Notes under the pieces: generated by a model
Seen by the model: only the letters and a program-made list of their open reading frames with translations
Told to the model about the DNA's origin: nothing
Databases searched by the model: none
Made by a program: the position numbers and the translations under genes
Shown here: in pieces, positions 272-44,370 of the stretch
Layout: every line of letters begins with the position of its first letter
How positions within the stretch are numbered: position 1 is the stretch's first letter
NCBI GenBank assembly: GCA_046484775.1
Contig: JAWOIG010000225.1
Coordinates: 1 to 45,810 of the forward strand
Origin: Clostridia bacterium
GTDB taxonomy: Bacteria; Bacillota; Clostridia; DUPQ01
DNA: 45,810 nucleotides
Direction of reading: 5' to 3'

Positions 272-1081
272 ATGAAGAAGGCAGCCTTTATTTTTTTGAT
301 TGCCGCGGTTATTTTCTCCATGTTCTGGTTTTATTACCCTTTCAGGAGCATTCTCATGATGTCCGTATATTCGGCGATTCACAGACAGGACAGCATAATG
401 AAGCAGGAAGGCTTTTCGGTTGAGATTCCCGGTGGCGCAACCACGCCCGGAAGGGACTGGTTCGTGATGCCGATGACATACAATGCCGATGTTTTCAACG
501 GCAGACACGGCAGCGAGACCGACATGTCCATAATCTATAATTTCCCGGCCTTCAACCCGTTGACCCGTACCAATTCCTTTTACGAATCCGATTCCGGATA
601 CTGCTCCGCATTTTATGGCGCATATATATTGCGAACAGATGACGAAACACCATATGGATTCACGAAGGCCGGAAACCCGGATACAAGTGAGGTTCTTGCC
701 GCTTTTAAATACGATTATGCGGTGCTTGTGCTGGAAAGCCTGGGTTGCACGGATGCCATGTTTGAGGTCATTGATTATGAGACTGGACTTGCCGCTTACA
801 TTGGTTATGATGGCTGGACAGTAATGGACGCGCACCTTTTAACAAACAGCGTGTCCCATTCCTATGTTGAAAGCAAAAGAAGCTACCTTCAATTCGGAAG
901 GCCTTTGGACGACCCGCCGGAGGATTTCCCCGTAATGGAGATGAACGGAAGGCTTTATATAAGATATTTTCCTGAATTCGGCTGCACGGTCGCCATGTAT
1001 ATTGTTGCACCTGACAAGGACGTGTTGGAGAAATGCGACAATGAACTGCTCGGCAAGAGCATGCTGAAAATCAAGCGCTGA
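272..1081 (+). CDS. hypothetical protein with an N-terminal hydrophobic anchor or signal (269 aa)
   Basis: Long ORF in the track. The N-terminus MKKAAFIFLIAAVIFSMFWFYY looks like a signal-anchor. I recognise no family motif and no strong SD. Confidence 0.6.
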   Translation: MKKAAFIFLIAAVIFSMFWFYYPFRSILMMSVYSAIHRQDSIMKQEGFSVEIPGGATTPGRDWFVMPMTYNADVFNGRHGSETDMSIIYNFPAFNPLTRTNSFYESDSGYCSAFYGAYILRTDDETPYGFTKAGNPDTSEVLAAFKYDYAVLVLESLGCTDAMFEVIDYETGLAAYIGYDGWTVMDAHLLTNSVSHSYVESKRSYLQFGRPLDDPPEDFPVMEMNGRLYIRYFPEFGCTVAMYIVAPDKDVLEKCDNELLGKSMLKIKR

Positions 1082-7728: not shown

Positions 7729-8073
7729 TCACAATACTTTCTCTCCCATCGAAACTCCGCCGACAAGGTGGAAATGCAGATGCATCACGCTCTGCCCGGC
7801 ATCCTCGCCCACATTGCCGATGATTCTGTAACCGCTTTCCAATACTCCGGTTAACGCAGCCGCCTTTTTCGCTGCCAGCATACAATCTCCGATTACATGC
7901 GCATTATCAGCATTAAGGCTGTTGATGTCATCTATATGCTCCTTCGGCACTATGATAAGATGAACCGGGGCGGCAGGACTTATATCCTTGAAGACCTTGA
8001 CCGATTCATTTTCATAGATTGTATCGGAAGGTATGTCTCCTCCGATTATTCTGCAGAAAATACAGCCACTCAT
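7729..8073 (-). CDS. HIT-family (histidine triad) nucleotide-binding protein
   Basis: CIFCRII near the N-terminus and the HLHFHLVGG histidine triad; 114 aa. Its start overlaps the alaS stop (ATGA at 8070-8073). Confidence 0.92.
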   Translation of the reverse strand: MSGCIFCRIIGGDIPSDTIYENESVKVFKDISPAAPVHLIIVPKEHIDDINSLNADNAHVIGDCMLAAKKAAALTGVLESGYRIIGNVGEDAGQSVMHLHFHLVGGVSMGEKVL

Positions 8074-10685
8074 GACAAAACCTCCTTTATCATCGCAAGC
8101 CCCTTTTCAAGCGCCTCACCTATTTTCGAAGCATCCCTGGCGCCGGCCTGGGCCATGTCGGGACGTCCGCCTCCACCGCCTCCGGCTGTTTTGGCGACTT
8201 CCCCTATCAGTTTTCCGGAATGTATTCCCCTGGCGACAGCTTTGCTTGTAGCAGCCGCCGCAAAATTGACTTTTTCCCCTCCGCTGCCCAGCAATACGAC
8301 GCAGTCGTCATATCTCTCCCTGGCTGAATCGCACATGCTTCTCAGCGTATTCATATCGGCTCCCTTGATTTCGGACACGATGACCTTGGTCCCGTTGATA
8401 TCCTCCGGATTGTCGAAAACATCGGGAACCGAACCCCTGGCTGTCTTTTTATTCAGCTCATCCATCTCCCTGCGGGCGGTTTTCAAATCCTTTATCAGTT
8501 TTTCAACCCTTGCAGGTGTTTCGGCATCCGTTGATTTTACAATCGAGGATACCGCTCCCATAAGCTGATTCTTTTCCCTAAAATATCTGATCGCCTCTCT
8601 TCCGGTCAAGGCCTCTATCCTCCTTACGCCCGCAGCCACTCCGCTTTCGGATACAATGACGAATGCGCCCGCTGAAGAAGTGTGCGAAAGATGGGTTCCG
8701 CCGCAAAGCTCCATGCTGAACGCGCCTGTGCTTACAACCCGTACGGTATCGCCGTACTTCTCTCCGAACAGCGCGGTCGCCCCCCTGTCCCTTGCTTCTT
8801 CAATCCCCATCTGTTCGACCCTTATCACGGCATCCTCCAGTATCTTCTCATTTACCAGTTCCTCGACGGCACCGATTTCTTCGTCCGTCATTGCCGAAAA
8901 ATGCGTGAAATCAAATCTCAGCCTTTTGGCTCCGACAAATGATCCCGCCTGAGCAACATGATTGCCAAGAATTTCCCTCAGTGCATAATGAAGAATATGG
9001 GTCGCCGTATGGTTTCTTTCGACATTCCTGCGGTTTTTGGAATCGACTTCACAGACAACCTCATCCCCGCTGTGCGCTTTCCCGGATAAAACCCTTCCTT
9101 TATGAACAAAAACACCTGTATGGGTCTTTATGCAGCCTTCAACCTGCATTTCGAATCCCGAATCATTCCATATCCTTCCTATATCGCCTTCCTGACCACC
9201 GCTTTCAGCATAGAATGGCGTTTTATCCAGGGCAAGCTCAGCAATTCCATCCACATGTGCAGCCGATACAATACGAGCTTTTCCCGACAGGCTGTCATAA
9301 CCTGTAAATACAGATGGTTCAACATCCTCGAAAATTTCTTCCTCGCCGCCGCCCCATGCCTGAGAACCATCCTCGGCCTTCTGCGCATTCCTTGCCATTT
9401 CCTTTTGCTTTTTCATCTCGGTGTCGAAACCGGCCTTGTCCATCTCGATGCCGTTTTCAGCGGCAATCTCAGCCGTCAGTTCATATGGGAATCCATATGT
9501 GTCATGCAACCGGAATATCTCGGCTCCGCTGATGAATTTGCCGTTTTTATCCAGTATGTCGGAAATATATGAATTCAATATTACCAGTCCCTGGTCGACC
9601 GTTGACTGGAAGCGTTCTTCCTCAATGCCTATTACCTTTTCTATATAATCCTTTTTAGCCACAAGCTCCGGATACGCTCCGCCTGATTCCCCGATAACCA
9701 CCCTGACTACATCGTGCAGGAAATTCCCCTTTATTCCAAGAAGCTTGCCATGGCGGGCGGCCCTGCGCAGCAAGCGCCTCAAGACATATCCCCTGCCTTC
9801 GTTCGATGGTATGATTCCGTCGGCCACCATCATCACGGTGCTTCTTACATGATCGGTAATCAGCCTGATGGATACGTCGGCCGAGTCATCCTTTTTATAT
9901 TCCACGCCCGCGATTTCACACACCTTGTCAAGAATCTTCCGAATCGTGTCGACCTCGAAAAGATTGTCCACTCCCTGAATGACACAGGCCAGCCTTTCAA
10001 GACCCATCCCGGTGTCTATGTTCTTGGTTGACAAAGGAACGTATTCGCCGCTCTCGAGTCTGTCAAACTGTGTGAATACAAGATTCCAGACTTCTATGAA
10101 CCTGTCGCAGTCGCAGCCCGGGGCGCATGTCGGGCTTTTGCAGCCCTTGTCCGCACCCCTGTCGAAGAATATCTCAGAGCAGGGTCCGCATGGGCCGGTG
10201 CCGTGCTCCCAGAAATTATCCTCCTTGCCAAGACGGAATATCTTGCTTTTTGGAAGCCCGGCTTCGTTCCTCCATATGTCATAAGCCTCGTCATCATCTT
10301 CATATACCGATACGGACAGAAGTTCCTCCGGTATTTCCAGCACCTTTGAAAAGTATTCCCATGCCCAGGCTATCGCTTCCTTCTTAAAATAGTCGCCAAA
10401 GGAAAAGTTGCCCAGCATTTCGAAAAACGTGCCGTGCCTGTCGGTTTTGCCGACACGTTCAATATCAAGCGTCCTGATGCATTTCTGGCATGTCGCCATC
10501 CTGTATGAAGGAGGCTTTTTCGCACCGGTGAAGTATTGCTTCAGCGGCGTCATCCCCGCATTTATCAGAAGGATGCTCGGATCGTTTTCCGGCACCAGCG
10601 AGAAACTGGGCACAACAAGATGCCCCTTGCTTTTGAAAAAGTCCAAAAAGCCCTGTCTGAGTTCGTTCAATGATAGTCTTTCCAT
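8070..10685 (-). CDS. alaS: alanine--tRNA ligase
   Basis: MERLSLNELRQGFLDFFKSKGH start, the HTATHILH editing motif and a C-terminal GGGGGGRPDMAQAG. SD AGAGGTG lies 6 nt before the ATG at 10685. The track extension to 10763 runs through the T-box terminator. Confidence 0.96.
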   Translation of the reverse strand: MERLSLNELRQGFLDFFKSKGHLVVPSFSLVPENDPSILLINAGMTPLKQYFTGAKKPPSYRMATCQKCIRTLDIERVGKTDRHGTFFEMLGNFSFGDYFKKEAIAWAWEYFSKVLEIPEELLSVSVYEDDDEAYDIWRNEAGLPKSKIFRLGKEDNFWEHGTGPCGPCSEIFFDRGADKGCKSPTCAPGCDCDRFIEVWNLVFTQFDRLESGEYVPLSTKNIDTGMGLERLACVIQGVDNLFEVDTIRKILDKVCEIAGVEYKKDDSADVSIRLITDHVRSTVMMVADGIIPSNEGRGYVLRRLLRRAARHGKLLGIKGNFLHDVVRVVIGESGGAYPELVAKKDYIEKVIGIEEERFQSTVDQGLVILNSYISDILDKNGKFISGAEIFRLHDTYGFPYELTAEIAAENGIEMDKAGFDTEMKKQKEMARNAQKAEDGSQAWGGGEEEIFEDVEPSVFTGYDSLSGKARIVSAAHVDGIAELALDKTPFYAESGGQEGDIGRIWNDSGFEMQVEGCIKTHTGVFVHKGRVLSGKAHSGDEVVCEVDSKNRRNVERNHTATHILHYALREILGNHVAQAGSFVGAKRLRFDFTHFSAMTDEEIGAVEELVNEKILEDAVIRVEQMGIEEARDRGATALFGEKYGDTVRVVSTGAFSMELCGGTHLSHTSSAGAFVIVSESGVAAGVRRIEALTGREAIRYFREKNQLMGAVSSIVKSTDAETPARVEKLIKDLKTARREMDELNKKTARGSVPDVFDNPEDINGTKVIVSEIKGADMNTLRSMCDSARERYDDCVVLLGSGGEKVNFAAAATSKAVARGIHSGKLIGEVAKTAGGGGGGRPDMAQAGARDASKIGEALEKGLAMIKEVLS

Positions 10686-10730
10686 TCCTGCACCTCTTGT
10701 CATATTTTTCAGCGGCGGTCGCCGGAAATT

Positions 10731-10941
10731 AAAAAAGCCCCATCCCTGAAAGGGACGAGACATCTCGCGGTACCACCCTGATTCTTCCTTTCGGAAGCAC
10801 TCGGAGCCTTAACGCGGCCTAGACGTCCTGACTTATTGGGAAAGGATGCTGAGGGTCAGCCTTCTCCGGATAATTGTAAAAGCTCTCATCAACCGCTTTC
10901 TTTCTTGAACAATCCCGCCGGGTACTCGTCCCTGTAATCGC
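10731..10941 (-). promoter_or_regulatory. T-box leader (tRNA-Ala sensing) controlling alaS
   Basis: The minus strand carries AGGGTGGTACCGCG (T-box sequence, 10779-10766) and AGTA/GAGA stem-I elements. The specifier-loop context GAAG-GCU-GA places GCU at 10860-10858. A terminator hairpin is followed by TTTTTT at 10736-10731. Confidence 0.85.
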
Positions 10942-10947
10942 AGTTCA

Positions 10948-12437: not shown

Positions 12438-12938
12438 CTATATTGCCTGAATCTCATCAAGCATACCCCTTATTTCCCGGGATTTTTCAACGTCTCCCCT
12501 GTCGTTGAAAAATTCCAACAGTTCATTGAGGAGCCTGCCTTCCCAAATGCCATCCTTTGATTTATCATAAGTGGAGTATATCGGCGTATCCGTCTCCAGG
12601 TCCTCATTGACATGAATGACCAGATATAACCGCAGGCTCTTTTTAAGATATGAATAATATAAGTCGAGCCTGCCTTTTGCCAGTTCAATCTCCGACATTG
12701 CGCCAAGGAACTCTGCCAGCATGAATACCGAGGCGTCGTCGCCGCCCACCATATTTTCCAAAGTCCTTGCATCCACCGCCATCAGTGTGTCCAGGCTGAT
12801 GCCGGTCAGATCCCTCAGTCCGTTCGCCAAAGTTTCTTCACCGGCAAGAAAATCCCCCTCCCTTGCCAGTCCCAGTGCCTTGGCAATGAATTCGGCGGCA
12901 AGCCTTATCAATCTCATAATATAGTCTTCAGTAATCAT
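12438..12938 (-). CDS. hypothetical soluble, helix-rich protein (166 aa)
   Basis: Clean ORF with protein-like composition. I am not sure of any family. It lies downstream of the giant gene but after that gene's terminator. Confidence 0.6.
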   Translation of the reverse strand: MITEDYIMRLIRLAAEFIAKALGLAREGDFLAGEETLANGLRDLTGISLDTLMAVDARTLENMVGGDDASVFMLAEFLGAMSEIELAKGRLDLYYSYLKKSLRLYLVIHVNEDLETDTPIYSTYDKSKDGIWEGRLLNELLEFFNDRGDVEKSREIRGMLDEIQAI

Positions 12939-13074: not shown

Positions 13075-13102
13075 GGGCGGGAAACCACTGTGCTTCCCGC
13101 CC
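13075..13102 (-). terminator. terminator hairpin after the giant gene
   Basis: GGGCGGGAA-N10-TTCCCGCCC is a 9-bp GC-rich stem starting 19 nt after the stop. It is followed by ATTTTG on the minus strand, a weak U-tract. Confidence 0.6.
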
Positions 13103-13120: not shown

Positions 13121-16100
13121 TTAGAATGAAAGCTTCATGTGCCAGGTGACCGAGCCTCCCACGTCAAAGAACACAAGGCTCAGGTGGTATCTGATCTTGA
13201 CCTGGGCCTCAAGCCTCCAGTCATTGTCCTTCTTCTCAAGCTCTCCCTGGGCGTTAAGGTGGAGCGAAATTATCTCATAGCGCTTTCCGCCGACCTTAAT
13301 GCCTCCTTCAAGACCTCCCTGTATGTAGGCCGAAAGCAGCAGATGGTCTTCATTGAAGTCATACTCTCCCTCGCCCCCGACCTTCAGATACGCCCTGAAG
13401 TATACTATGGCGATCGTCACATACCCCGTGTCGTACTCAAAGTACATCTTGCCCTTTACAAAGTTTTCAGACGGCGGAGTTGTGTTTTTTATCACAAGGC
13501 CGAACCCTGTTTTTGAGAGGCTTCCCATCCTGGCTTCCAATGGATTGGGATACCCTATGCGAAGCTCCCAGAACTTGGGGCTCATCTCAAATCCCACATC
13601 TCCGTTCAGCACGAGACCATACATCCCGAAGTCCGTAAGTGTAAGGCTGAACTTGAACAGCTTGTCCCTGTGGTAGTAGCCGATCCTTACGGTTCCCATC
13701 AGCTTGAGGTCGTTTCCGGTCATGACCGACGTGACTTTTGAAGGTCCGTAATATTGCCCTCCAATTTCGACCGACGGTCCTTTTTCTACCACCAGATACA
13801 GGTTTCTCACTTCTCCAAGCTGAAGCTTGCCATAACTTGTGTCATAACCCAGCGTCATCCATGCGGTGGCCGCAAAGAAGTAGTTGCCTCCCGGGGTTCT
13901 GTTCACATCCATTGTGTCGATTGCATTGAAAAGTCCCTGTTTTCCGGAGGGTATCACATAGCCTGTTTCAACAGAATATCCGATGTCAAGGTTATAGCCG
14001 AAAACCCCCGTGATATCATTGATCTTTCCATAGCCGAAATCAATCCCGCCCATAGGGTCGCTGTAGTAGATTGCAAGCGCGAAGAAGTACCTGCCCATGA
14101 CCTTGTCGTATCCCATCCTGGCATTGCACTCTATCTCGACCGCGCCGAATATATCGGCGGCGGTATTGAACACCATTTCCAGCGAGTCCGTCTCATACTC
14201 TATAATCCCCGAACCCGGATCGACGACCTTTGGAGATGCGATTGAATCAATCTGCGCAAACTCTTCGAAATCCATGTTGACCTTTGATTTTGATTCGGAG
14301 TAATTGATTCCCGGATTCTCGAATACCCCTGCGATAATAATTCTGTCGAAATCTTCCTCCGTGTCGACGGAAAGCGTGTCTGAAAGCTGCATGCCCCCCC
14401 AGAGGTACATATCGCTTGAATAGTAGCTTACCGAACCGGAAATTGGCATTGTGATTCCGCTCCACTTCAAGGTCCTCCTGATGCCTGTATCCAGATTGGG
14501 CGCCAGCACCGCTATCGAAAACGACGAGCCTCTTGTTATAAGCGACAGCGCGCGTATCTCCATGTCGAAGTCATGGAACTGTATCTTGTAAGGCTTGTCG
14601 AACAATGCAGAGCCCAGCAGGCCTTCCGGATTGTTGGCTTCCTTGAGCATCTCCATGTCGGCGGGCACTATAAGCTCGGTGAATGCTATGTCGCTCATAA
14701 GGATGCTTGCGTTGAAATTGAGGTCAAGCGTGCCATCCATGTGCAGGCCGTCCTCCATGAGATGACCGCCGCTGATCTTTATGAACACTTCTCCGGTACC
14801 CGCGGGATCGAACTTTTCGGTTTCCTCAACGGTGCACACAAGCTTGCCCAGTTCCTCGGAGGTGTAGATTCTGATGTTCGCCCTTTGAAAACCGAACAGC
14901 GGAATTCCTATCGATCCCTTTATCTCCAGATTGACACTGTTGTTGTACAGGTCTATGTATATGCTGTTTGCATAGGCGTCCTGGAATCCTCCGAGCTGAT
15001 CCCCCAGATTTACCGGAATGCCCTCAGGCGAATAGGCCTGGCTTTGGTAATAGAAACCATTCCGGTCATACAGCATTTCACCCGGCGTCAGATTGAAGGA
15101 AACCCTTTTGTTCGACTCTGTCTTTATGTATGCAGGAGGAAGCGAAACCCTTCCCGATTTTATGATCATTCCGGTCCAGACAGCTTCCTGGGTTTCCGTT
15201 GTCATGGCATCGGTCGTTGCTTTTCCCCTGTCGAGGTCGATTGTCACATTGCTGCCTATGACGCCCACCTCTTCGTCGTCGTTACCGACAAGCGTGGGCA
15301 TCAGCGATTTATTGTATACTATGAAACCTCTTCCGCCCCATCCGGTAATGTCAATGGGTATGTTGGATATAGTCGGCATGCCGGCGAGGTCGGTCGGCAT
15401 GATCAGAAGCGTTTGCAGCTGCGCTCTTTCCGCCAGGTAGAACATGCCTACATCGACAATGTTCTTTTGAACCTGGATAACCTGCGTCGTGCCGGATTTT
15501 ATCGAGTTTGGATTCATCTGCAGCAACCCGCCTACGTTGGAACTGTCAAAAACGGAATCTCCGAGTGTCTGCTTTGCGATTGTATTGAAGTTGGCCGAAA
15601 CCGGGGAATCATCGATGAATGTCTCGAACGGCAGCAATATCTTGCCCTTCAGATAGCTCGTCGTGGTGTCGGGCACCCCGTTTTTATAAACAAGCCTTGC
15701 GTCGATTGTAGATATGCCCAGTCCCGCCGGGATTACAGTTCGCATAAGCTGCCACTGCGATATGGTCATTGTTCCGTTCATTGCACCGTTCTTGTCGAAA
15801 TTGATTATGCTGTAGCTGAATTCAAGTCCCTTGTTGTCGATGGTTTCCATCCCGAGGTTGTTTTCGGCAACACCGTTCATCATGTTGATGAACCCTGTGC
15901 CGAATGACAGGTACAATATCGTGCCTCTTTTCCTTATCGTCTCGGATTGGATTACCGCCGGGGCCGTTGCGTCGAAAGCTCCCAGGTTCAGGGTAATCTT
16001 CTCCATCCCGGTCAAAAGTATATTGTCATACCTGAATTCCGGTATCTCTGTTATCGAGATTATTCCCCCGGGTGTTACCTCGCTGTTCGTAAACCTGAGC

Positions 16101-19100
16101 GAATACAGATCGCCCATGAGATTCTCTGTGGGCTGACTGCCCGCCTTGACAACATACCCCGTCGCAATCGCTTTGTTTATTTCAGTATTAATTGTAAGGG
16201 AGCTTATATATACGCCTGTATTACCCACCTGGACTGCACTCTTAAGAGCCACGTTTCCGTTGGTTATTTCACCTTCGCTGCTCCATGAAGTTACCGTCAG
16301 ATTGACCGGAACCGTGTATTTGTTTGCAATGACCAGGTCGCCGGCGCCTGTCTTGGGCGAGCCCGTGCCTGTGGTTGCGATATTGATGACATCAAATCCC
16401 GCGATTTTCATTGAAGCCGGAAGAGTTACCGGTGCGATGATTATCGGCGGCAATGATATCGTAGGCATGATGAACGCCGTAGCCGCCGAAAGGTCCGCCG
16501 GCTGCTCCTGTTGTTCCCCGAAAGGAATGAGCGGTATGATGATCCGCGGCTGCTCGTATATTCTGAAAATCGAGCTTGACGGAAGCAGGAAACTCCTTAT
16601 TCCGCCCGTGGATACTGCGGATGAGAATTCAGATGTATATCCACCCGTGTCAACCACCTTAACCTTGTACCAGTTGACAGCTGCGGGATCCGCATCATTA
16701 TCGATGTATCCGGTCGCCGTAAGCAGCGGACTGGCCTGGTAGTACTCCCCATTCTGGGTCTTGCTTCTGTAAACGATGTAACCGGCTATGAATTCCGCAC
16801 TTTCATCAATCGAAAGATTAGGATCCTTCGCCTTGTTCCATGTAATTTCCGGTTGCCCGGTATCGGAGTCTATTGCCGCCGCAATGCCTGTAACAGGCGG
16901 GAAGGCTTCTCCTTTTCTGGGAGATACGCTGACCGGTTCGGGACGCTCCGAGGCAAGACCGTCGTCATTGAAGGCCTGCACGGTATACATGTAAGTGTCG
17001 CCGAACTCGACGTCCGTATCGACAAAGGAAAATGTCCCTGTCGAAACCTGTCCGAGCGGTATGTCGACTTCATCCACCAGATCCCATATGACGAGCTTTG
17101 CAAGTGCGGAATCCAGCATTCCGTAAGGGGCGACAGCGAGTACGCCGTATTTTTCAACTATGTTCTTGAATACATCGACCTTCGTGTCAACCGGCGATGT
17201 CTTGATACTATTCATGATCGTCATCGGCGCCAGAAGCTGCAGCGTGTTGAAATTCGATACAGCTTCCGAGACCGTCGCAGCAGGCAGGGTTATCCCGCCC
17301 GCCATCATGCCATATTCGGGCCTGTCTGATGAAAACGGCATTATCTGGAGATCTGGCATATAAATCTGGGTGCTTATCTCGGGCATGAATATCTTGTTGA
17401 ACATTTCAGGGGCCTTTAATTGAATCGCGGATATATCCTCTTCGGTCACCCTTGGAACCATTGTCCTGAACACCTTGTATTTACTGGCGAACGGCACCCC
17501 GTTCCACCTTACCTCGACGCTCGCCTTCTTAGGGAACGGAATGAGCATGAAAGGCGCCTGCGGCGGAACAGTCGATGCAACCCTTATGGAAGCCAGCGTA
17601 TAGCCTTCGGTTTCCACCCCCCAGACGCTTACGGAGGTTATCTTGAAATAGTAGTAATGTGCGATGGTCTGGTCCGCTTCCTCCACATATCCGGTATATT
17701 TAAGTTTGTCGCCGACAAGGGTCCAGTCTAGCGCGTCGGGATTATCGCTTGCGCTGAAATACGGGACCTCCGCCTTGTAAACATTGAAATATGAAATCTG
17801 CGCGTCATCCGGGCGGTCCCATTTCAGGCTGATCCATCCGCCCGGTACATATCCGATGTATCCGATGTCCAGGTCAGGCCTCGTTTGTGCCGGAACCATT
17901 GATATCATGTACAGATATATCCTGCCGGATTGTTTTTGAACAGTATCGGTGATTTTGTTATATGTTATGTTTCCCTCGACAAGCGTCCAGTCGTATGCCT
18001 CGAGTATTTCCTCGATGGGCAGGGCGCGTATTTCATCGATGTCGCCCCCATCGATATATGTCCTGTATACATTGTATGCGCCAAGGCCTTCCCCTGAATA
18101 ATGGTACCAGGAAACATCCGCGGTTCCATTGGGCTTGACGTCGCTTTCCCGAAGGGCTATTATATCATGCACATCAGCCGGCTTGGGCATGTTCCCATAG
18201 AACAGGTTAAGCATCTGCGGAAGCACGGTTATGCCCTTTCGTACAATGTCCGACACAGATACGCCGATTGAAATATCCTTGACCATGGCCTCCTGCACAA
18301 CTGTTGTATTGACTCCCGCCCTTGGCTCATATCCTTTGTCGATCGGTGTGCTGCCCCATTTTATGTCAGATGCCATTTCGATGTCCGCGAACCTTCCCTG
18401 CATGAACCCGACCGCTTCTGCTGAAAAGTCCGGAAGCATGTTGAACGTCAGCGATGCAGTTGCCGAACCCGGAAGCTGCGGCTGTGCATCCGTTGAATAT
18501 CCGAGCACCTTGGAATGAGACCAGGCGCTTTCGTTTCCCCACCCGTCAATTGCCGAAGCCCAGTATTTGTAGAAATATCCTGCTGTTACATTCGCATCAA
18601 AGAATACCGCCTCGATTTTCGAGCCCAGTGCATCCTTTTGCAGGATTATATTCCCGCCCGATACGCCGCCGCCTTTAAGCACAAGCTTGTCTGCCGGTTT
18701 CTCGGCAGGTATCTCGACCCGGCCGACTTCGACCGGCTGCGAAAACAATCCATTTCCCCATGCCGTGCTCCTGTATATTATGAATTTTTCAGTATCGTCC
18801 GTAGTTTTCGAGATGGGCAGTATCACTCCCTTGGTACCGGAATATGCATTTATCGTCTCCTGGAAAAAGCTTTCTGTTCTGCGCTTGACCGAATCAGACA
18901 TAACCGGCTGATCTATTTCAGGGGAGCCGGGAGGAGTTGTTTTAACCACGTCAATGCTAAGCGGGCTTGATGTGTAGTCGCTCAGCCTTCCAAAAATATC
19001 GAGTGCCTGGACCCTGTATGTAACCCTGTCGCCATTTTCAACATCATAATCGATATAGTAGTCAGGAACTTCATACAGTATGTGGTTTTCATCCTCCATG

Positions 19101-20617
19101 AAGGAAATTGCGACAGGTATTTCATTCAGCCTGGTAAAGCCGCTTTCTCCATTTTTCTTTCTCTCGATATAGAATCCGGATATTATGCTGTTGCCATAAT
19201 CGGTCGTAGGAGCCTGCCATCTGAGATGCACTTCACCGTCTACGCCGTAACCCTGCAGGTCCTCGGGGACCTCAAGCGGCGTCTTGGCGCCGTAGCTTAC
19301 CTTGGTCGAGTACATTCCCGTCCTTGAGCTTTCATTTATGATTTCCTGGGGGGCAGGTGCCGCCGCGCCTTCCGTAAGGGGAAGAAGCACATATTCTATC
19401 GTCGTGTTCACATCATACGATTGGTTCCCCAGGTCATCCTCATAACCGAACCCTATGGCTTCGGCAAACTCCGAATCCGTATTTGCCAATGTAAGCATTG
19501 AATTCCTGGCGTCCAGGACAAGCTGTATCGTCTCCTCCGCAAGTGTGAGCTGAGGTATCTGGGGAACAAGCGGCTGGGTGGTGCCTTGAACCGGTTTCAT
19601 CGCATCCACTATCGACATGACCGGCGTATTGATCTGCGTTACAAGGTGGATTGTGGAGTTATTGAATAAATCCGCCTCCGGGACTTTGTCTATGATTGAT
19701 GCAGGCCTGATGAAGTTACCTTCCTTCTGGTCATCAAATGCCTGGCTGCCCTCTATCTTTAGCATGCTCGAATTGAGTATGACACTGCTGAAAACCATGT
19801 CGTTGAACTGCTGGATGCTGCTTACTCCAATATTGCCTAGTTTAATCGGGTCAAGAACGGAATCATTGTAAATTTCAGCGATGAACGGTGAAAACTCAAG
19901 GTTGAGGCCGGTGAATTGATAAACCTTCTCCTTCGTTCCCATCTTGCTGTCCACAAGCACCGCGTTTCCGTTGATGATTCTATAAAGGTAGTATCCTTCT
20001 TCAGGCAGCCACTCTATCTGTGGTATCCATCTCAGAAGAACCTTGTTCGGCTGATCCCATGTGCCCTTGAATTCCGTTGTCGCATCAAGCTGTCCGGGCG
20101 CCGGTTTTGCATTGGCGAGCAGGTCCTCGATCTTGGCCTTTATATCTTCGAGCCTGTCAACGTCTTCCTGGGTTTCCTCATCCTCCGCGTCTCCCTCTTC
20201 ATCGGTCAGCCCTTCAATCAGTTCATTTATTTCTTCAATAAGTAACTTAAGCCTATTGGAATCCTGTAGGCTATTTATGATATCGGCCAGGCTGCCTGCT
20301 TCGAGAATCTCATCGCCTATGCCCGATTCATCAAGAAGATCCTTTGCCCCGGCTGTATCCGAGGAAAGGAATTCCTTGAGATTGGAAGGGGTTTTGTTCA
20401 GGTCCTCGGCGGAAATCCATGGATCCACCTTTTCCCCCCCCTCGGGCGGTTTTTCGGGCTGAAGAGTATCGGAAGGGCCGGGAGTCGGGGTCGGCGATCC
20501 GGTTATGCCGGGCGTAGGCGACTCCTCGCCGGTCTTTTTTTTGCAACCTGTAAAAGAATAGGTAAAGAAAAGAACTATTGCCATCAGCAAACATAACTGT
20601 TTTTCGATCTTTTTCAT
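13121..20617 (-). CDS. giant predicted lipoprotein (about 2,498 aa) with an acidic stalk, FN3-like modules and a large unassigned C-terminal region
   Basis: Uninterrupted 7.5-kb ORF. The ATG at 20617 lies 6 nt after GGGGAGG, and the track ATG at 20632 is part of that SD. Signal peptide plus lipobox: MKKIEKQLCLLMAIVLFFTYSFTG-C. A P/T/G-rich linker follows. Repeated FN3 F-G strand signatures include YRVQALDIFGRLS, YKYWASAIDGWGNES, YFKITSVSVWGVE, YMYTVQAFNDDGLAS and WYKVKVVDTGGYTS. Confidence 0.9.
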   Translation of the reverse strand: MKKIEKQLCLLMAIVLFFTYSFTGCKKKTGEESPTPGITGSPTPTPGPSDTLQPEKPPEGGEKVDPWISAEDLNKTPSNLKEFLSSDTAGAKDLLDESGIGDEILEAGSLADIINSLQDSNRLKLLIEEINELIEGLTDEEGDAEDEETQEDVDRLEDIKAKIEDLLANAKPAPGQLDATTEFKGTWDQPNKVLLRWIPQIEWLPEEGYYLYRIINGNAVLVDSKMGTKEKVYQFTGLNLEFSPFIAEIYNDSVLDPIKLGNIGVSSIQQFNDMVFSSVILNSSMLKIEGSQAFDDQKEGNFIRPASIIDKVPEADLFNNSTIHLVTQINTPVMSIVDAMKPVQGTTQPLVPQIPQLTLAEETIQLVLDARNSMLTLANTDSEFAEAIGFGYEDDLGNQSYDVNTTIEYVLLPLTEGAAAPAPQEIINESSRTGMYSTKVSYGAKTPLEVPEDLQGYGVDGEVHLRWQAPTTDYGNSIISGFYIERKKNGESGFTRLNEIPVAISFMEDENHILYEVPDYYIDYDVENGDRVTYRVQALDIFGRLSDYTSSPLSIDVVKTTPPGSPEIDQPVMSDSVKRRTESFFQETINAYSGTKGVILPISKTTDDTEKFIIYRSTAWGNGLFSQPVEVGRVEIPAEKPADKLVLKGGGVSGGNIILQKDALGSKIEAVFFDANVTAGYFYKYWASAIDGWGNESAWSHSKVLGYSTDAQPQLPGSATASLTFNMLPDFSAEAVGFMQGRFADIEMASDIKWGSTPIDKGYEPRAGVNTTVVQEAMVKDISIGVSVSDIVRKGITVLPQMLNLFYGNMPKPADVHDIIALRESDVKPNGTADVSWYHYSGEGLGAYNVYRTYIDGGDIDEIRALPIEEILEAYDWTLVEGNITYNKITDTVQKQSGRIYLYMISMVPAQTRPDLDIGYIGYVPGGWISLKWDRPDDAQISYFNVYKAEVPYFSASDNPDALDWTLVGDKLKYTGYVEEADQTIAHYYYFKITSVSVWGVETEGYTLASIRVASTVPPQAPFMLIPFPKKASVEVRWNGVPFASKYKVFRTMVPRVTEEDISAIQLKAPEMFNKIFMPEISTQIYMPDLQIMPFSSDRPEYGMMAGGITLPAATVSEAVSNFNTLQLLAPMTIMNSIKTSPVDTKVDVFKNIVEKYGVLAVAPYGMLDSALAKLVIWDLVDEVDIPLGQVSTGTFSFVDTDVEFGDTYMYTVQAFNDDGLASERPEPVSVSPRKGEAFPPVTGIAAAIDSDTGQPEITWNKAKDPNLSIDESAEFIAGYIVYRSKTQNGEYYQASPLLTATGYIDNDADPAAVNWYKVKVVDTGGYTSEFSSAVSTGGIRSFLLPSSSIFRIYEQPRIIIPLIPFGEQQEQPADLSAATAFIMPTISLPPIIIAPVTLPASMKIAGFDVINIATTGTGSPKTGAGDLVIANKYTVPVNLTVTSWSSEGEITNGNVALKSAVQVGNTGVYISSLTINTEINKAIATGYVVKAGSQPTENLMGDLYSLRFTNSEVTPGGIISITEIPEFRYDNILLTGMEKITLNLGAFDATAPAVIQSETIRKRGTILYLSFGTGFINMMNGVAENNLGMETIDNKGLEFSYSIINFDKNGAMNGTMTISQWQLMRTVIPAGLGISTIDARLVYKNGVPDTTTSYLKGKILLPFETFIDDSPVSANFNTIAKQTLGDSVFDSSNVGGLLQMNPNSIKSGTTQVIQVQKNIVDVGMFYLAERAQLQTLLIMPTDLAGMPTISNIPIDITGWGGRGFIVYNKSLMPTLVGNDDEEVGVIGSNVTIDLDRGKATTDAMTTETQEAVWTGMIIKSGRVSLPPAYIKTESNKRVSFNLTPGEMLYDRNGFYYQSQAYSPEGIPVNLGDQLGGFQDAYANSIYIDLYNNSVNLEIKGSIGIPLFGFQRANIRIYTSEELGKLVCTVEETEKFDPAGTGEVFIKISGGHLMEDGLHMDGTLDLNFNASILMSDIAFTELIVPADMEMLKEANNPEGLLGSALFDKPYKIQFHDFDMEIRALSLITRGSSFSIAVLAPNLDTGIRRTLKWSGITMPISGSVSYYSSDMYLWGGMQLSDTLSVDTEEDFDRIIIAGVFENPGINYSESKSKVNMDFEEFAQIDSIASPKVVDPGSGIIEYETDSLEMVFNTAADIFGAVEIECNARMGYDKVMGRYFFALAIYYSDPMGGIDFGYGKINDITGVFGYNLDIGYSVETGYVIPSGKQGLFNAIDTMDVNRTPGGNYFFAATAWMTLGYDTSYGKLQLGEVRNLYLVVEKGPSVEIGGQYYGPSKVTSVMTGNDLKLMGTVRIGYYHRDKLFKFSLTLTDFGMYGLVLNGDVGFEMSPKFWELRIGYPNPLEARMGSLSKTGFGLVIKNTTPPSENFVKGKMYFEYDTGYVTIAIVYFRAYLKVGGEGEYDFNEDHLLLSAYIQGGLEGGIKVGGKRYEIISLHLNAQGELEKKDNDWRLEAQVKIRYHLSLVFFDVGGSVTWHMKLSF

Positions 20618-20683
20618 GATTGACCTCCCCAAAGCATGAATACAAGGAAACCTGTTATGACCCCAACCAATATGATAATGCCA

Positions 20684-20692
20684 ATTATATCA
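20684..20692 (-). promoter_or_regulatory. extended -10 element (TGATATAAT) upstream of the giant gene
   Basis: The minus strand reads GTGATATAATTGG about 65 nt before the ATG. A second TATAAT lies 20 nt further upstream. The -35 is weak. Confidence 0.4.
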
Positions 20693-20780
20693 CTTTGTTG
20701 GCAGATTATAAAGCCAGTGCTTCGGGTGTTTGCCGCTTGCTGTTCATGAGAACCGCTTCGCTTTATGTCTTGGCTGAGTA

Positions 20781-22865: not shown

Positions 22866-25388
22866 TCAAAGTCCGGGCCATATCTCCGATATGAAGAGCT
22901 TCACCAATCCGGGGTCGAACTGCCTTCCCGAATTTTTTCTCATTTCAGTATAGATGCGTCTCTGCGACATTGCCTTTCTGAACGGCCTTTGGTTCGCCAT
23001 CGCATCATAGGCAGCTGCAATGGCAATTATCCTGGATTGCAAAGGTATCTCTTCTTCCTTCAATCCCCTGGGATATCCCTTTCTGTCCCATCTTTCATGA
23101 TGCGCAAGGACGAACTCCGCAAGGTCAGCCGTATCATTCGCGCTGCTCAAAATCCTGTATCCCGTTTCCGAATGCCTCCTTATATTTTCAATCTCGTCGG
23201 TTTTTATAAGTTTGCCCGGACTTTTCAGCAAGTCTTCCCTTACGGCTATTTTGCCGATGTCGTGATACAGACCGGCATATCTCAGCCTTTCGATTTCATT
23301 TTTCTTCATTTTCAACGCCTCGCCGATCCTGCCGCATATTTCGCTGACTTTCCCCGCATGATCCTGTTCCCAATCGATCCTATTGCAAAGGGTCTTGAAA
23401 ATAACTTCGATTGCTTCTTTTCTTTTTTTCGAATGGTCGCGAAGCTTGTCCCTGTACATGGCATCTTCGGCGGCTTTGAACAAATCGTCGCGGTTTTGCT
23501 TTGAATCGGTTTTAACCGCATGGCCAAGTCCTATTGAAAACGGCAGCTCTGTTGAAGTGCACCCGTCGGCCGCAACTGAAATTCGTTTTAATATTTTCTC
23601 CGCATCGGCGGCACCTGTGTGAGGCAGAAGTATCATGAACTCGTCCCCTCCCACACGGGCTATTATCTCATCCTGCCTGCATGCGGCTTTTAGGATTTCA
23701 GCCGCGCTGATCAACAAAGCATCCCCTTCATTATGTCCGAATGAATCATTGGTCAGCTTAAGGCCATTTATATCCGCCATAATGACCGAGAACGGATAAT
23801 TCCGTTTGACGTCCAGTCTGCTGAATTCTTCCTCAAGATACCTGCGGTTGTAAAGTCCGGTCAGATGGTCGTGATAGCTGATGTATTCTATTTCCTCGAG
23901 CTGATCCTTCCTTCCCGACATGTCGAGGATTGTTCCAAGCATCCTCACAGGCGTCCTGCCGTCGAAATCAATGGTGCAATTTAGCAGACACGCCAATTCA
24001 TCCCCCATGCGGCCCGGCAAATTGACATCAAGCTCAAAATTCTTCTTTTTGCGAAAGGCTTCATGAACCGCATTTTCAAATATCTCCCCGGATTGATTTA
24101 AAAACGGCAGGATTCCGGATACTTCGGCATCCGTGTTTTTTTTGCATTCATCCCCAAGCAATTCGAAAAGACCATCCGACCACATGCATGCCCTGGAGGA
24201 AAAATCATATTCAAAATATCCCGACCTGTTCAATAATTCAGCCTTTTTCAACGCGTTTTCGCTTTTTAGAATCCGGTCCTGCATATTCCTGCTTTCGGTT
24301 GTATCCTCTCCCGATAATAGGACCATCGCTTCGTTTTCACCATCGACTTTTATAAATGTGCTGCGCCAGGCCACGGTTCTCCATTCGCCCGAAGCCGTTA
24401 TAACCGGATGCTCTGACACTTTGTAACCCCCTTGCATATCAAAGGATTCAAAATCAGTCATTGTCCTGGCTGCATCCTCATGCTCGCGCGGCACAAAATC
24501 GTCTATCCAAAGCCTGCCCAGTATATCCTTGGAATCATAGCCAAGCATTGCACAGCAGGTCCGGTTGATAAATGCGGCCCTTCCGGTCGCATCCAAAACA
24601 ACAATCATTGAACCTGCTGAATCAATAAAGGTTCTCAGCTTGTTTCTTTCCATGTTCAGAGCTTCTTTTTCCCTCATCATATCCGTGGCGTCGAAGGCTG
24701 CGCCCGAAACCAAAACATCATTTCCTTCTGATGATTCGGCTTTTCCCTTGAACAGCAGTATTCTTTCGTTCTTCCCTGCACCGGGCTTGACTCGCAGTGA
24801 AACACGCCCTGTGTTTTCCCCTGCCGCCATTTCCCTTACTGCCTCCCAAAATTCCGTTGGATCTTTTAGATTCCTTGAAAATTCAATAATGCTCTTTTCA
24901 AAACTTCCTTCTTCAAGGCCGAATAGCCTCGAAGCACCCGCCGATGACCATACCATTTCCTCTCCGGGTACGATTTCAAGGCTTCCCGACGAGCCCGCCC
25001 TTTCCGAAGCCTCGTACCTGCGAATATGCCCGGCTGATTCCTCGGATAAGTTTACCGCATCCGTAACATCATCTGTGAAAGCGATAATATTTTTGTCAAC
25101 GGCAATCGATTCTATTTTCCATAGTCTGACACCGTCCCTTACTGTCCTGACAGGCAGGATTACAGGGTTCTTGATTGAATCCATGAATTCCGAGGTTTTG
25201 GCTTTAATATCTTTCTCATCCGGACCCTGGATTATTCCGCTTATACTCTCGCCGATGAGTTCGACAAAATTATAGCCGCACATTGCGCATGTTTTTTCAT
25301 TAACATACTTGAATATACCATCCAAGTCGGTGATGAATATTCCATACGGAGCCATCTCGATTATCCCGGAAAATATTTCTGCTTCCAT
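22866..25388 (-). CDS. multi-PAS sensor with GGDEF and HD-GYP domains (c-di-GMP turnover)
   Basis: RVGGDEFMILL is an intact GGDEF. GLYHDIGKI plus HHERWDRKGYPRGL make an HD-GYP. The roughly 500-aa N-terminal part has repeated PAS-like segments. Confidence 0.92.
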   Translation of the reverse strand: MEAEIFSGIIEMAPYGIFITDLDGIFKYVNEKTCAMCGYNFVELIGESISGIIQGPDEKDIKAKTSEFMDSIKNPVILPVRTVRDGVRLWKIESIAVDKNIIAFTDDVTDAVNLSEESAGHIRRYEASERAGSSGSLEIVPGEEMVWSSAGASRLFGLEEGSFEKSIIEFSRNLKDPTEFWEAVREMAAGENTGRVSLRVKPGAGKNERILLFKGKAESSEGNDVLVSGAAFDATDMMREKEALNMERNKLRTFIDSAGSMIVVLDATGRAAFINRTCCAMLGYDSKDILGRLWIDDFVPREHEDAARTMTDFESFDMQGGYKVSEHPVITASGEWRTVAWRSTFIKVDGENEAMVLLSGEDTTESRNMQDRILKSENALKKAELLNRSGYFEYDFSSRACMWSDGLFELLGDECKKNTDAEVSGILPFLNQSGEIFENAVHEAFRKKKNFELDVNLPGRMGDELACLLNCTIDFDGRTPVRMLGTILDMSGRKDQLEEIEYISYHDHLTGLYNRRYLEEEFSRLDVKRNYPFSVIMADINGLKLTNDSFGHNEGDALLISAAEILKAACRQDEIIARVGGDEFMILLPHTGAADAEKILKRISVAADGCTSTELPFSIGLGHAVKTDSKQNRDDLFKAAEDAMYRDKLRDHSKKRKEAIEVIFKTLCNRIDWEQDHAGKVSEICGRIGEALKMKKNEIERLRYAGLYHDIGKIAVREDLLKSPGKLIKTDEIENIRRHSETGYRILSSANDTADLAEFVLAHHERWDRKGYPRGLKEEEIPLQSRIIAIAAAYDAMANQRPFRKAMSQRRIYTEMRKNSGRQFDPGLVKLFISEIWPGL

Positions 25389-40110: not shown

Positions 40111-40317
40111 TTATTAATCTCCTTAATATTGATAATCAAGCAGTATCCGCCTGCCATGCAAACCTGCCATTGAATATAATAATCCACAATAATACCGATT
40201 GTCCATACAAAATGATAATGTTTCTGAAATGCATACGCATAATTCCATATTTCCTGCCGCCGTAGGTAGTATAATAGTACAAAGGCCATATCGACATACT
40301 TGGCAACGGGGGACGCG

Positions 40318-42333
40318 ATGGATAAAAAGCATGATTCATATTTCACACCCGGACGCACCGCAAGCTGGTGGTGCACACTGGAAGACATCCTGTGGCCGGA
40401 AAAAAAGATAGTTGAAAAAATCAAATATTCCGCGGAGCTATTTTCGAAGGCGCGTATCGAAACGGCGATAAATTTCGGTTTTCATGTGCGGTTTGATTTT
40501 TCAAATTATTTCAGCCAGCTGCATGGATATTATGCGGCGGTCTGCGATGAGCTTCACAAATACGGGATAAAGTTCATGGACCATTATTCATGCAACCATG
40601 TCCAAAGACCCCGGGACATGGACGAATTCAAAAAAGTGCACCGTAACCACCGTCACCACATACTTCTTTTCCATGATCCGCAGGCATCCGCCCATGCACA
40701 GTACGAAGGGCATTTCTTCAACGACCTGTGCGAAATAGATATAAGGGACGGAAGCAGAGGTTATTCAAAATCCTATCAGCTTGAGGTCTTCTGCCACAAC
40801 AACCCCGGATTTCTTGATATGCATATGAAATACCTTGCCAGGCTTCTGAGGGATGTGCCGCTTGACGGAATTGAAGTCGACGACATGTGCGACTATGCCG
40901 GCCTTGCAACCTGCGGCTGCGAATACTGCAGGGAAAGGCTTTCAAGGGACTATGGCAGCGAAATAGCTCCATTCGGCGATGAAAGCTTCTGGGGCGACAC
41001 CCGGTCCAAGGGAGAATATCACTGGGGTAATTATGACAACCCCGCTTTTCGAAATTGGTTGAGAATGAAATCGGATTCCGTTGCCGGTCATCTTGCGATG
41101 GTGAAGGATTCCGTGCGGGGAATTCCATTGATGACATGCTGTTCCAGTTCGGGTCCGATCATACTGAATTCACTTGCCCTGAATCTGGAAAAACTTTCAG
41201 ACAGCCTTGATTTCTTCATGCTTGAAAACTGCGGAATCAATACCGGAGGCGTCGACTGGGTCCGCATGGATCCGGAGGCTCTTCAGCAAAAGGATATAGC
41301 TGAAAAGAGAGGCAATGCTCCTGCGATGGCCATAAGCTATTCCATATACGGCGATGGCGCATATCTTGGATGGGCTCTTGCCCGTTTCTGGGGCGTATTC
41401 AACTGGAGCAGCACACTGAACCAAAGGCTTGAAAAAGATCCGGATGACGCCCATGAAATTCCCGAACTTATCGGCAAATACAACAACTGGGAAGCCGCAA
41501 ATTCCAATATTGACTTCACAAAATGCGGAGATATGGCCGAGGTACGCATTGCATCCAACGGATACTGCCGGGAAAACGGCTGGCGCGACACCGAAGGATT
41601 CGAACACTGGGACAAGGTCGTGAAATGGTCCGGCCGGCTTGTCGAAAAGAACATCGGCTACAGAATCGTGAGGGCGGATGAGCTTGCCGATGAAACAGCG
41701 TTGAGCGCAGCCGACACCCCCTTGGTGCTGGACGGTCTGGGCTGCCTGTCGGAACTCCAGTTCAACGCAATATCCACGTATTTGAAAAAAGGCGGAAAGG
41801 CATGGATTTCCCTGCCTTTTGGCACCCATGATGAAAAGGGATTCCTTCTTGACAAACCTTACTCGGATTATCTGGACAATAATAATTACGGAGGCCTTGA
41901 AATCATCGAAACCTCAACAGCCGGGAATCCCCTGGGGAAACTGTTGGATTCAGGTTCCTTTACTCCCATTGCCGAGCGTTTGTCCGGCGATTCCAGTTGG
42001 GCCCTGAGGCTTGGAAAATCGAGCGGCGGAAATCAAATCCATTTCCTTAACCGCGCCCTATCGGCGATTCCCCATCCATCGCTCCGGGATAGCTCAGGCC
42101 GGCCGATACTTGCAGGCATTGAATCGCAGTCCCGTGACAACAAGCTTGTATATCGTATTGATTCAGCCAGGTTTCCGATGCGCCGGCCGGAAATCCTTAG
42201 TCCGGAACTTGGGTCGGCTCGCCGTGACGTTCCGATTGCCGAATCAGGTCCATACGCATATGAATACACATTTGATCTGAGCGGCATCGGAATTTATGCA
42301 GTCGCTCAGGAAAAACCCGAAAAACAGGGATAA
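40318..42333 (+). CDS. hypothetical cytoplasmic protein with a GH42-like Cys cluster (possible TIM-barrel glycosidase-like fold)
   Basis: Long clean ORF. The ATG at 40318 follows GGGGGA, with a TATAAT at 40270-40275. FCHNNP plus CGCEYC, 40 residues apart, resembles the GH42 zinc site (CPNSP...CxCxxC). There is no signal peptide. Confidence 0.7.
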   Translation: MDKKHDSYFTPGRTASWWCTLEDILWPEKKIVEKIKYSAELFSKARIETAINFGFHVRFDFSNYFSQLHGYYAAVCDELHKYGIKFMDHYSCNHVQRPRDMDEFKKVHRNHRHHILLFHDPQASAHAQYEGHFFNDLCEIDIRDGSRGYSKSYQLEVFCHNNPGFLDMHMKYLARLLRDVPLDGIEVDDMCDYAGLATCGCEYCRERLSRDYGSEIAPFGDESFWGDTRSKGEYHWGNYDNPAFRNWLRMKSDSVAGHLAMVKDSVRGIPLMTCCSSSGPIILNSLALNLEKLSDSLDFFMLENCGINTGGVDWVRMDPEALQQKDIAEKRGNAPAMAISYSIYGDGAYLGWALARFWGVFNWSSTLNQRLEKDPDDAHEIPELIGKYNNWEAANSNIDFTKCGDMAEVRIASNGYCRENGWRDTEGFEHWDKVVKWSGRLVEKNIGYRIVRADELADETALSAADTPLVLDGLGCLSELQFNAISTYLKKGGKAWISLPFGTHDEKGFLLDKPYSDYLDNNNYGGLEIIETSTAGNPLGKLLDSGSFTPIAERLSGDSSWALRLGKSSGGNQIHFLNRALSAIPHPSLRDSSGRPILAGIESQSRDNKLVYRIDSARFPMRRPEILSPELGSARRDVPIAESGPYAYEYTFDLSGIGIYAVAQEKPEKQG

Positions 42334-44184: not shown

Positions 44185-44352
44185 TTTTTAGGGAAATGAA
44201 TTTTGGAAACCACATGGCACAGCATTTGTTTTCCGGTCTCCCGGGAGTTTTGCCCTGTGCCTTTCGATTGTGGAACCGGAGGGCCATCCGCCGAATGCTT
44301 CGATAAACCCTCTCCTCGTCAACCGCCTGATACTGCGGTCCCGGCGCTTTTG
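44185..44352 (-). ncRNA. glmS ribozyme (GlcN6P-dependent self-cleaving leader)
   Basis: The minus strand reads A|GCGCCGGGACCGCAGUAUCAGGCGGUUGACGAGGAGAGGGUUUAUCGAAGCAUUCGGCGGAUGGCCCUCCGG. It matches the conserved AGCGCC, GACGAGGA, UUAUCGAA, UUCGGCGGAUG and CCUCC blocks. The predicted cleavage site lies between 44348 and 44347. Confidence 0.88.
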
Positions 44353-44370
44353 CTATGTTTTCCGGTCTTT

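Follow-up and report, generated by a model that had tools for sequence, protein, structure and literature searches.

The window analysed here, a 45,810-nucleotide stretch of DNA from a Clostridia bacterium (contig JAWOIG010000225.1 of assembly GCA_046484775.1), carries on its reverse strand one very large gene, predicted to encode a giant lipoprotein that consists of a stalk with fibronectin type III (FN3)-like modules and a C-terminal module of about 1,100 residues, referred to below as the head. In the list of open reading frames (ORFs) and its translation, the gene occupies 13121..20632 (-), i.e., 2,503 codons counted from a TTG start, and an ATG at 20617 is preceded by a ribosome binding site (RBS; GGGGAGG) at a spacing of 7 nt. 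Judging from this arrangement, the ATG is probably the true start of the gene, which would give a protein of 2,498 amino acids (aa). With that start instead of the TTG at 20632, the residue numbers of an earlier description of this DNA, made from its letters without database searches (the sequence-only reading), would be five too high; in its numbering, residues 1409-2503 correspond exactly to 13124..16408 (-), the region treated here as the head. A promoter-like element lies upstream of the gene and a terminator-like hairpin lies downstream (Table 1). With a promoter and a hairpin terminator of its own, the giant gene would therefore be monocistronic.

By its substitution pattern, the head is real coding sequence and is strongly constrained, as is the protein over its whole length. 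In comparison with the related locus L002 (94 percent identity), the ratio of nonsynonymous to synonymous substitution rates (dN/dS) was 0.062 for the N-terminal part, 0.059 for the head and 0.034 for the last 253 aa; the intact ORF and a dN/dS of 0.06 rule out non-coding sequence or a pseudogene. The head is composed mainly of Gly (10.9 percent), Leu (8.4), Ile (8.3), Thr (7.4), Ser (7.1), Val (6.5) and Asn (5.8), together with Phe, Tyr and Trp (10.5 in sum), and its Cys content of 0.2 percent amounts to two residues. Self-BLASTP of the head at E<=1 returned nothing, and when 140-aa windows of the family alignment were compared pairwise with hhalign in search of cryptic repeats, the highest probability was 7.5 percent. 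The composition, these two self-comparisons and the predicted structure (see below) agree with the sequence-only reading, in which the head had been called beta-rich and non-repetitive.

Database searches likewise bear out its statement that the head has no recognisable domain, Cys pattern or catalytic signature. No Pfam family matched the head at E<=1, and among 32 head sequences of the family searched at E<=10 no Pfam family was matched by more than one member. The only NCBIfam match in the window protein is of FN3 type and lies upstream of the head, and no PHROG matched within the head. Against PDB sequences, phmmer found no match to the head, the family profile matched nothing with its C-terminal half, and a head-only profile was also without a match, FN3 and immunoglobulin (Ig) chains included; FN3-type matches end at about residue 1337. 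Thus, the head is without a detectable relative among described families or solved structures.

The head nevertheless belongs to a sizeable protein family. A word-indexed protein search yielded as relatives two partial proteins from metagenome-assembled genomes (MAGs) and no more, and a scan of GTDB species genomes added eight loci with full-length or partial homologs at 52-94 percent identity, the complete proteins of which have 2,470-2,527 aa, a lipobox and a terminal Phe. An exhaustive HMMER profile search over 1.84 billion representatives recovered 99 clusters with E<=1e-3, and for 48 of these the E-value was 1e-30 or below. Their complete members have 2,100-3,200 aa, and the head match always lies at the extreme C-terminus. 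All ten clusters that were looked up are metagenomic, and their proteins are unnamed or annotated as 'hypothetical protein' or 'fibronectin type 3 domain-containing protein'. The source labels of the relatives are Clostridia, Eubacteriales, Clostridiaceae or Bacillota, all MAGs. Every taxonomic or gene-context hint points to anaerobic uncultured Bacillota (Clostridia-type MAGs) as the home of the family. At one locus (L001 6863..13342, from an Eubacteriales MAG), the homologous gene is called as three ORFs of 458, 568 and 1,113 aa, and a stretch of X marks their junction. Such a stretch stands for masking or for a gap in the assembly, and P0001, a partial protein, is accordingly a product of assembly or annotation and not a stand-alone head.

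The members of this family share one architecture. Close relatives carry an L[TAS]GC lipobox and distant ones an uncleaved N-terminal transmembrane signal-anchor, so that nearly all complete members have either a lipobox or a transmembrane anchor at the N-terminus. At the head end, no C-terminal anchor of the LPXTG sortase, SLH or CWB2 type was found. In the window protein, the stalk begins with an acidic helical segment and continues with FN3-like modules, of which the last pair is the clearest (Table 1). The NCBIfam FN3-type model CbhB matches residues 1191-1337 of the window protein and PHROG 31 ('central tail fiber J') matches residues 1193-1337. The family profile matches titin and Fn3 chains of the PDB, all at positions up to 1148 of 2,196. 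Pfam fn3 matches were obtained in 6 of the 16 full-length relatives, and Ig_J Pfam domains in two relatives. The likeness to the phage central tail fibre J is confined to these generic FN3/Ig modules. In precomputed Pfam tables, faint Fn3_SaeA_2nd and Fn3_SaeA_3rd matches fall on the N-terminal parts of the homologs at L010 (P0041), L013 (P0045) and L001; hmmscan of P0041 and of the L001 fragment did not reproduce them, and a literature search on giant Clostridia FN3 proteins and 'SaeA' found nothing relevant.

Across the family, 8 to 553 aa separate the head from the last conserved FN3 motif (in P0041 this spacer contains three fn3 domains), whereas the head itself keeps a constant 1,060-1,270 aa. 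Because the spacer varies in length while the head does not, the module boundary sits where the sequence-only reading had placed it, with the head beginning right after the last FN3-like module and a Pro/Ile-rich linker. At the opposite end, the final residue is Phe in all nine close relatives and in 21 of 35 C-termini across the family, the rest ending in Leu, Ile, Tyr, Trp, Ala, Gly or Lys or in short extensions. Collectively, these sequence features indicate a giant protein that is tethered to the cytoplasmic membrane by its N-terminus, with a stalk of variable length and the ~1,100-aa module always last.

An AlphaFold2 model of the head was obtained from an alignment of 51 sequences (depth 25-42, identities 22-74 percent). 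With this input, the mean predicted local distance difference test score (pLDDT) was 85.8 (84-86 over five models) and the predicted template modelling score (pTM) 0.60, as compared to a pLDDT of 28.5 with an alignment of three sequences. The model contains about 50 strands and one helical insert, about 95 percent of it being beta or loop, and its strands, 8-20 residues long, are joined by tight hairpin links. The sequence-only reading had described a single domain region of unusual size. The large non-repetitive module stands, but family indels and the model divide it into several lobes, and the head is a multi-lobed module, not one domain. It can be divided into six parts, A to F (Table 1).

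Part A, an all-beta lobe, has conserved Gly, Pro and Phe positions. The helical insert (part B) shows the lowest conservation of the head (0.32-0.33), and the beta core (part C) the highest. The motifs of the core are W.G.GF, W.G..(5)G...LP, GE..YD.NGF.YQ and D.Y.N...LE; it also holds a lone conserved Cys (head C525) and the invariant residues Y447, G451 and Y454, and close relatives are 82 percent identical over residues 1851-1950. The Cys lies in the context 'LVCTVEE', which appears not to fit the C-x-[EQD] thioester motif, and adhesin chemistry of the thioester or isopeptide type at this position was set aside. Matches to the family hidden Markov model break at about head position 650-690, and the short variable part D is followed by the middle beta region (part E), which carries an R.GYD motif with invariant R764 and G766. 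Part E has two insertion hot spots, after head residues 730 and 783, that accommodate up to 150 aa and 77 aa, respectively, in relatives; this is one surface loop region that tolerates large lineage-specific insertions. The inserts themselves differ in kind: those of P0018 and P0019 are Lys/Glu-rich and coiled-coil-like, that of P0047 resembles a Cys-x2-Cys...Cys-x...Cys ribbon, and that of P0041 is Gly/Thr-rich and of low complexity.

The C-terminal part F is predicted to be an amphipathic up-and-down meander, the chain of which ends in ...GSVTWHMKLSF. One face of its strands is apolar: up to nine alternate positions have a hydropathy, averaged over the family, of about +1 to +3, and on this face most strands lack charged residues. 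The opposite face has a hydropathy of -1.5 to -2.3 and 30-46 percent charged residues. Over the whole head, conserved positions are mostly Gly, Pro or aromatic; the conserved polar ones fall in the motifs named above and in R.GYD and GYYH, and no catalytic signature was recognised among the conserved head motifs.

Table 1. Features of the giant gene and of its surroundings in the window. Head residues are counted from the first residue of the head.
Feature	Position	Strand	Basis or content
Whole gene, predicted giant lipoprotein of 2,498 aa	13121..20617	(-)	ORF, RBS, promoter, terminator
Promoter-like element	20712..20684	(-)	TTTATA-17-TATAAT with TG (sigma-70-like, extended -10)
Signal peptide with lipobox, MKKIEKQLCLLMAIVLFFTYSFTG before C	20543..20617	(-)	read from sequence; starts MKKIEK...FTGC
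Stalk: acidic helical segment, then FN3-like modules	16607..20542	(-)	conserved N-terminal region; profile matches
Clearest FN3 pair of the stalk	16607..17047	(-)	
Pro/Ile-rich linker from last FN3-like module to head	16409..16606	(-)	sequence; extra Ig/FN3 site in relatives
Part A, all-beta N-lobe, head residues 1-263 (protein 1409-1671 in the sequence-only numbering)	15620..16408	(-)	predicted, ~20 strands of 5-12 residues; pLDDT mostly 85-95
Part B, helical insert, head residues 264-346 (four helices at 274-331)	15371..15619	(-)	DSSP on the model; pLDDT 62-85
Part C, beta core, head residues 347-633	14510..15370	(-)	pLDDT about 90-96; conservation 0.5-0.62
Part D, variable loop, head residues 634-656	14441..14509	(-)	gap in P0001; pLDDT 60-73
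Part E, middle beta region, head residues 657-842	13883..14440	(-)	insertion map; R.GYD motif
Insertion hot spots of part E	~14060..14220	(-)	
Part F, C-terminal amphipathic beta-meander, head residues 843-1095	13124..13882	(-)	DSSP on the model; ~15 hairpin-linked strands, the last five of 13-19 residues
Terminator-like hairpin	13075..13102	(-)	11 bp, 8 GC pairs, then T run; 19 nt past the stop codon
166-aa ORF	12438..12938	(-)	no Pfam match
T-box leader	10748..10947	(-)	RF00230, 102 bits
alaS ORF	8070..10763	(-)	
840-aa ORF	22866..25388	(-)	motifs read from the translation only
glmS ribozyme	44206..44359	(-)	RF00234, 95 bits
589-aa ORF, presumed glmS	42394..44163	(-)	
677-aa ORF	40300..42333	(+)	no Pfam match at E<=1e-5
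269-aa ORF	272..1081	(+)	no Pfam match at E<=1e-5

The whole 1,095-residue chain of the model was used as a Foldseek query, and the best 50 of 515 PDB matches were considered. The top match was the beta-belt of ApoB100 (9bde, 9ea7; E 1.2e-7, probability 0.98), followed by LptD, usher pores, SlpA, MtrB, porins and VDAC (E 1e-7 to 1e-3). These best 50 matches have template modelling (TM) scores of 0.04-0.14 when normalised to the query and of at most 0.25 when normalised to the target, with 6-12 percent identity and root-mean-square deviations (rmsd) of 17-54 A. In BFVD, the best matches reach a TM score of at most 0.13, a J-protein model being among the weak ones. The sequence-only reading had named a match to a known family, with a probability above 95 percent over most of the region, as the result that would overturn it. 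Foldseek probabilities of 0.98-1.00 were indeed obtained for ApoB100 and for one unnamed BFVD model, at TM scores of 0.11-0.13, an rmsd of 27-34 A and 9 percent identity, and they assign the head to no family. On the predicted model, the Foldseek matches reflect local hairpin-meander geometry and not the fold. ApoB100 and the LptD, usher and porin barrels have in common with the head that long antiparallel hairpins run up and down in a meander, one face of which is apolar, but they have no sequence relation to it and belong to other organisms and cellular settings.

Three further likenesses had been proposed from the sequence, namely to AsmA/TamB-like proteins, to pectate-lyase-like beta-helices and to LamG/jelly-roll folds. 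The phrase 'extended beta-sheet style' holds as a description, as the model consists of long antiparallel amphipathic sheets; homology to AsmA/TamB is not supported. No AsmA, AsmA_2, DUF490 or DUF748 Pfam match was found in the window protein, in 16 full-length members or in 32 head sequences, and the family profile, when aligned to E. coli TamB with hhalign, gave a probability of 0.7 percent, a weak test in that the target was a single sequence. An AsmA-like protein and the members of this family are alike in having, in most members, an N-terminal anchor, an all-beta amphipathic body and a conserved C-terminal strand. They differ in that the family lacks profile or Pfam similarity to AsmA/TamB, is hosted by MAGs labelled Clostridia or Bacillota, has no TamA/BamA-type gene in six neighbourhoods of ~20 kb and carries FN3-like modules that, together with the acidic helical segment, would break a continuous groove of AsmA/TamB type within the first ~1,340 residues. 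As these modules lie between anchor and head, a continuous beta-taco groove is ruled out, and the architectural parallel is at most an analogy.

The pectate-lyase-like beta-helix is contradicted by predicted hairpin-linked strands of 8-20 residues without a ~22-residue period and by the lack of a Pfam match to Beta_helix or Pectate_lyase. Likewise, no Laminin_G or lectin-type Pfam match in 32 members speaks for a LamG/jelly-roll fold, which was also absent among the best 50 of 515 whole-chain Foldseek matches, a comparison in which a match to a small domain could be missed. TamB, AsmA, beta-helix, lectin jelly-roll and RHS-shell structures were all missing from these best 50. An RHS/YD-repeat shell was rejected as well: the head contains a single YD-x-NG motif (head 447-451) and no repeats, and no RHS, Tc-toxin or teneurin structure is among the same 50 matches.

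A general parallel for the whole protein is offered by giant Gram-positive surface proteins of the SasG/Aap and Ebh types, which consist of an anchor, an Ig/FN3 stalk and a distal functional head. The family resembles them in having one tether, an FN3/Ig stalk with a variable number of modules and a non-stalk module at the far end. It departs from them in several respects: its tether is an N-terminal lipobox or transmembrane segment and not a C-terminal LPXTG, SLH or CWB2 anchor, the stalk modules of the window protein are too diverged for Pfam, the 1,100-aa head is non-repetitive and unrelated to known adhesin heads, and the whole protein is strongly constrained. The class of giant stalked surface protein is known and the head is new: its family is well populated but entirely metagenomic, neither a Pfam model nor a PDB relative exists for it, and its confident predicted structure has no convincing neighbour. 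With at least 99 clusters of sequences, the head is a good candidate to define a new domain family, and possibly a new fold. It forms the distal end of one of the largest proteins of these uncultured anaerobes and evolves under housekeeping-like constraint, and a central role at the cell surface is therefore probable.

The interpretation that we favour, if only tentatively, is that the head may serve as a non-enzymatic interaction platform that the stalk holds away from the membrane. Because the anchor is N-terminal and the stalk variable, the head would lie at the greatest distance from the membrane and be exposed within the cell wall or outside it. The large amphipathic beta-sheets would provide a rigid scaffold, and the conserved polar motifs (E-T-x-D-N-x-G, YD-x-NG-x-YQ, D-x-Y-x-N, R-x-GYD and GYYH) could bind an invariant partner, e.g., an envelope component of the same cell or a substrate that is itself conserved. 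The simplest explanation of the long apolar sheet faces in the model would be that sheets pack on one another, sandwich-like or taco-like, and bury these faces in a core. By general strand geometry, a membrane belt needs only about half the length of an ~18-residue strand whose one face is entirely apolar. Since the apolar runs of the head extend to nine alternate residues, i.e., to a strand of about this length, they exceed the membrane belt, and a buried core fits them.

Several observations weigh against this interpretation. Strong purifying selection, a single chromosomal copy and synteny in close relatives are more in line with a housekeeping component of the envelope than with a classical adhesin, a kind of protein that usually diversifies. 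Such structural analogues as were found are weak, and all of them are lipid-associated beta-belts or membrane barrels; the conserved amphipathic terminal strand, often ending in Phe, resembles the beta-signal of barrels. Additionally, the model draws on only 51 sequences and, as read here, would fit sandwich, taco and barrel alike. An interaction role would still be the most likely one, as judged from sequence and model. Which of these arrangements holds has consequences for function: a buried core, a lipid groove and a barrel would separate an unusually large binding head from a new way in which monoderm bacteria handle hydrophobic compounds or contact other cells.

The Foldseek list bears on the first of the alternatives, according to which the head binds lipid or other hydrophobic material, or docks onto or inserts into a foreign membrane. 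It would then work like the beta-belt of ApoB, the jelly-roll of LptD/LptA or the taco of TamB, but without homology to any of these. The ranking of ApoB100, LptD, ushers, SlpA, MtrB and porins as best matches speaks for this alternative, as do sheet faces that have 0 percent charged residues in up to nine alternate positions and lie opposite highly charged faces, the parallel with AsmA-like proteins in anchor, all-beta body and C-terminal strand, and housekeeping-like purifying selection. We nonetheless consider it unlikely, if the most credible of the alternatives, because the low TM scores and large rmsd values of the best 50 PDB matches amount to a generic hairpin-meander likeness, no sequence or profile link to TamB/AsmA was found, an FN3 stalk cannot conduct lipid, so that bridge-type transfer from the cell's own membrane is improbable, and the core of an ordinary sandwich would be expected to have amphipathic strands just as well. 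A bolder version, on which we would place still less weight, takes the head as a new fold class, a stalk-mounted amphipathic beta-sheet machine of monoderms that would bind hydrophobic material or dock into the membrane of a neighbour, an independent counterpart of ApoB, LptD and TamB with a housekeeping role in uncultured anaerobic Clostridia.

The same Foldseek list, in which barrel proteins dominate, could alternatively indicate that the C-terminal meander is a true outer-membrane beta-barrel, the protein spanning the periplasm of a diderm Bacillota from an inner membrane at its N-terminus. An N-terminal membrane anchor and an alternately apolar terminal strand with a final Phe, at the frequencies given above, would suit such a barrel. 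We regard it as very improbable: every taxon label is that of a Clostridia, Eubacteriales, Clostridiaceae or Bacillota MAG, six neighbourhoods of ~20 kb each contained no Omp85/BamA, TolC, LptD or OmpA-type gene, the apolar faces, which run 6-9 alternate residues against ~5 per strand in a membrane belt, are longer than such a belt, by about a factor of two, the TM scores to real barrels are at random level, and the terminal Phe is lost in many distant members. The conserved polar residues of the head (E188, D391, E444, D448, D486, E495, D688, E737, R764, D768 and H913) raise a different prospect, namely a new extracellular enzyme, formed by the head or by a single lobe of it and acting on a polymer, such as a polysaccharide or cell-wall hydrolase or lyase with a novel beta fold and with conserved acidic, His and Arg residues in catalysis. 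The strong sequence constraint would accord with an enzyme, and glycoside hydrolases and a DUF2961 protein are encoded in the window, but 10-20 kb away and unlinked. As no enzyme family matched in Pfam, NCBIfam or PDB sequences (32 members), most invariant positions are Gly, Pro or aromatic and hence structural, and a conserved neighbouring transporter or regulator, usual for polymer-utilisation genes, is missing, this prospect appears improbable, though less remote than the barrel.

As for its genomic setting, the gene lies among chromosomal housekeeping genes, including alaS and genes for HIT, MATE, AEC-type transporter, aldo-keto reductase and UvrD-like helicase proteins, purA and glycoside hydrolases. 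A phage or plasmid origin was rejected: tblastn of the head against 50,697 phage records and against plasmid records gave no match, and no relative was found in IMG/VR. Operon partners were also sought and dismissed, as neighbours are common to close relatives only and distant members lie amid unrelated metabolic genes; since no neighbour gene is conserved, the giant protein would act on its own. The neighbours of relatives include PrsW, DUF4179 anti-sigma, SLH and CtpB/PcsB-type genes, which accords with a Bacillota setting. Just downstream of the giant gene, the 166-aa ORF of the window is kept in five related MAG loci (53-87 percent) at 0.2 to ~7 kb from the giant gene, and is probably not a dedicated partner of the giant protein. 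The 840-aa ORF has kept its place upstream of the giant gene in three relatives, and in its translation PAS-like regions are followed by a GGDEF (RVGGDEFMILL) and an HD-GYP-like (HHERWDRKGYP) motif. At L010 (19056..25529), the gene after P0041 encodes 2,157 aa with lectin, Big, cadherin-like and PA14 domains and is followed by a pair of extracytoplasmic function (ECF) sigma and DUF4179 anti-sigma genes; this stretch may be a local surface-protein cluster.

Elsewhere in the window, two sizeable ORFs of 677 and 269 aa are without a Pfam match (Table 1). The T-box leader lies directly upstream of alaS, and the glmS ribozyme lies upstream of the 589-aa ORF, which we take to be glmS; a T-box together with a glmS ribozyme is typical of Bacillota.

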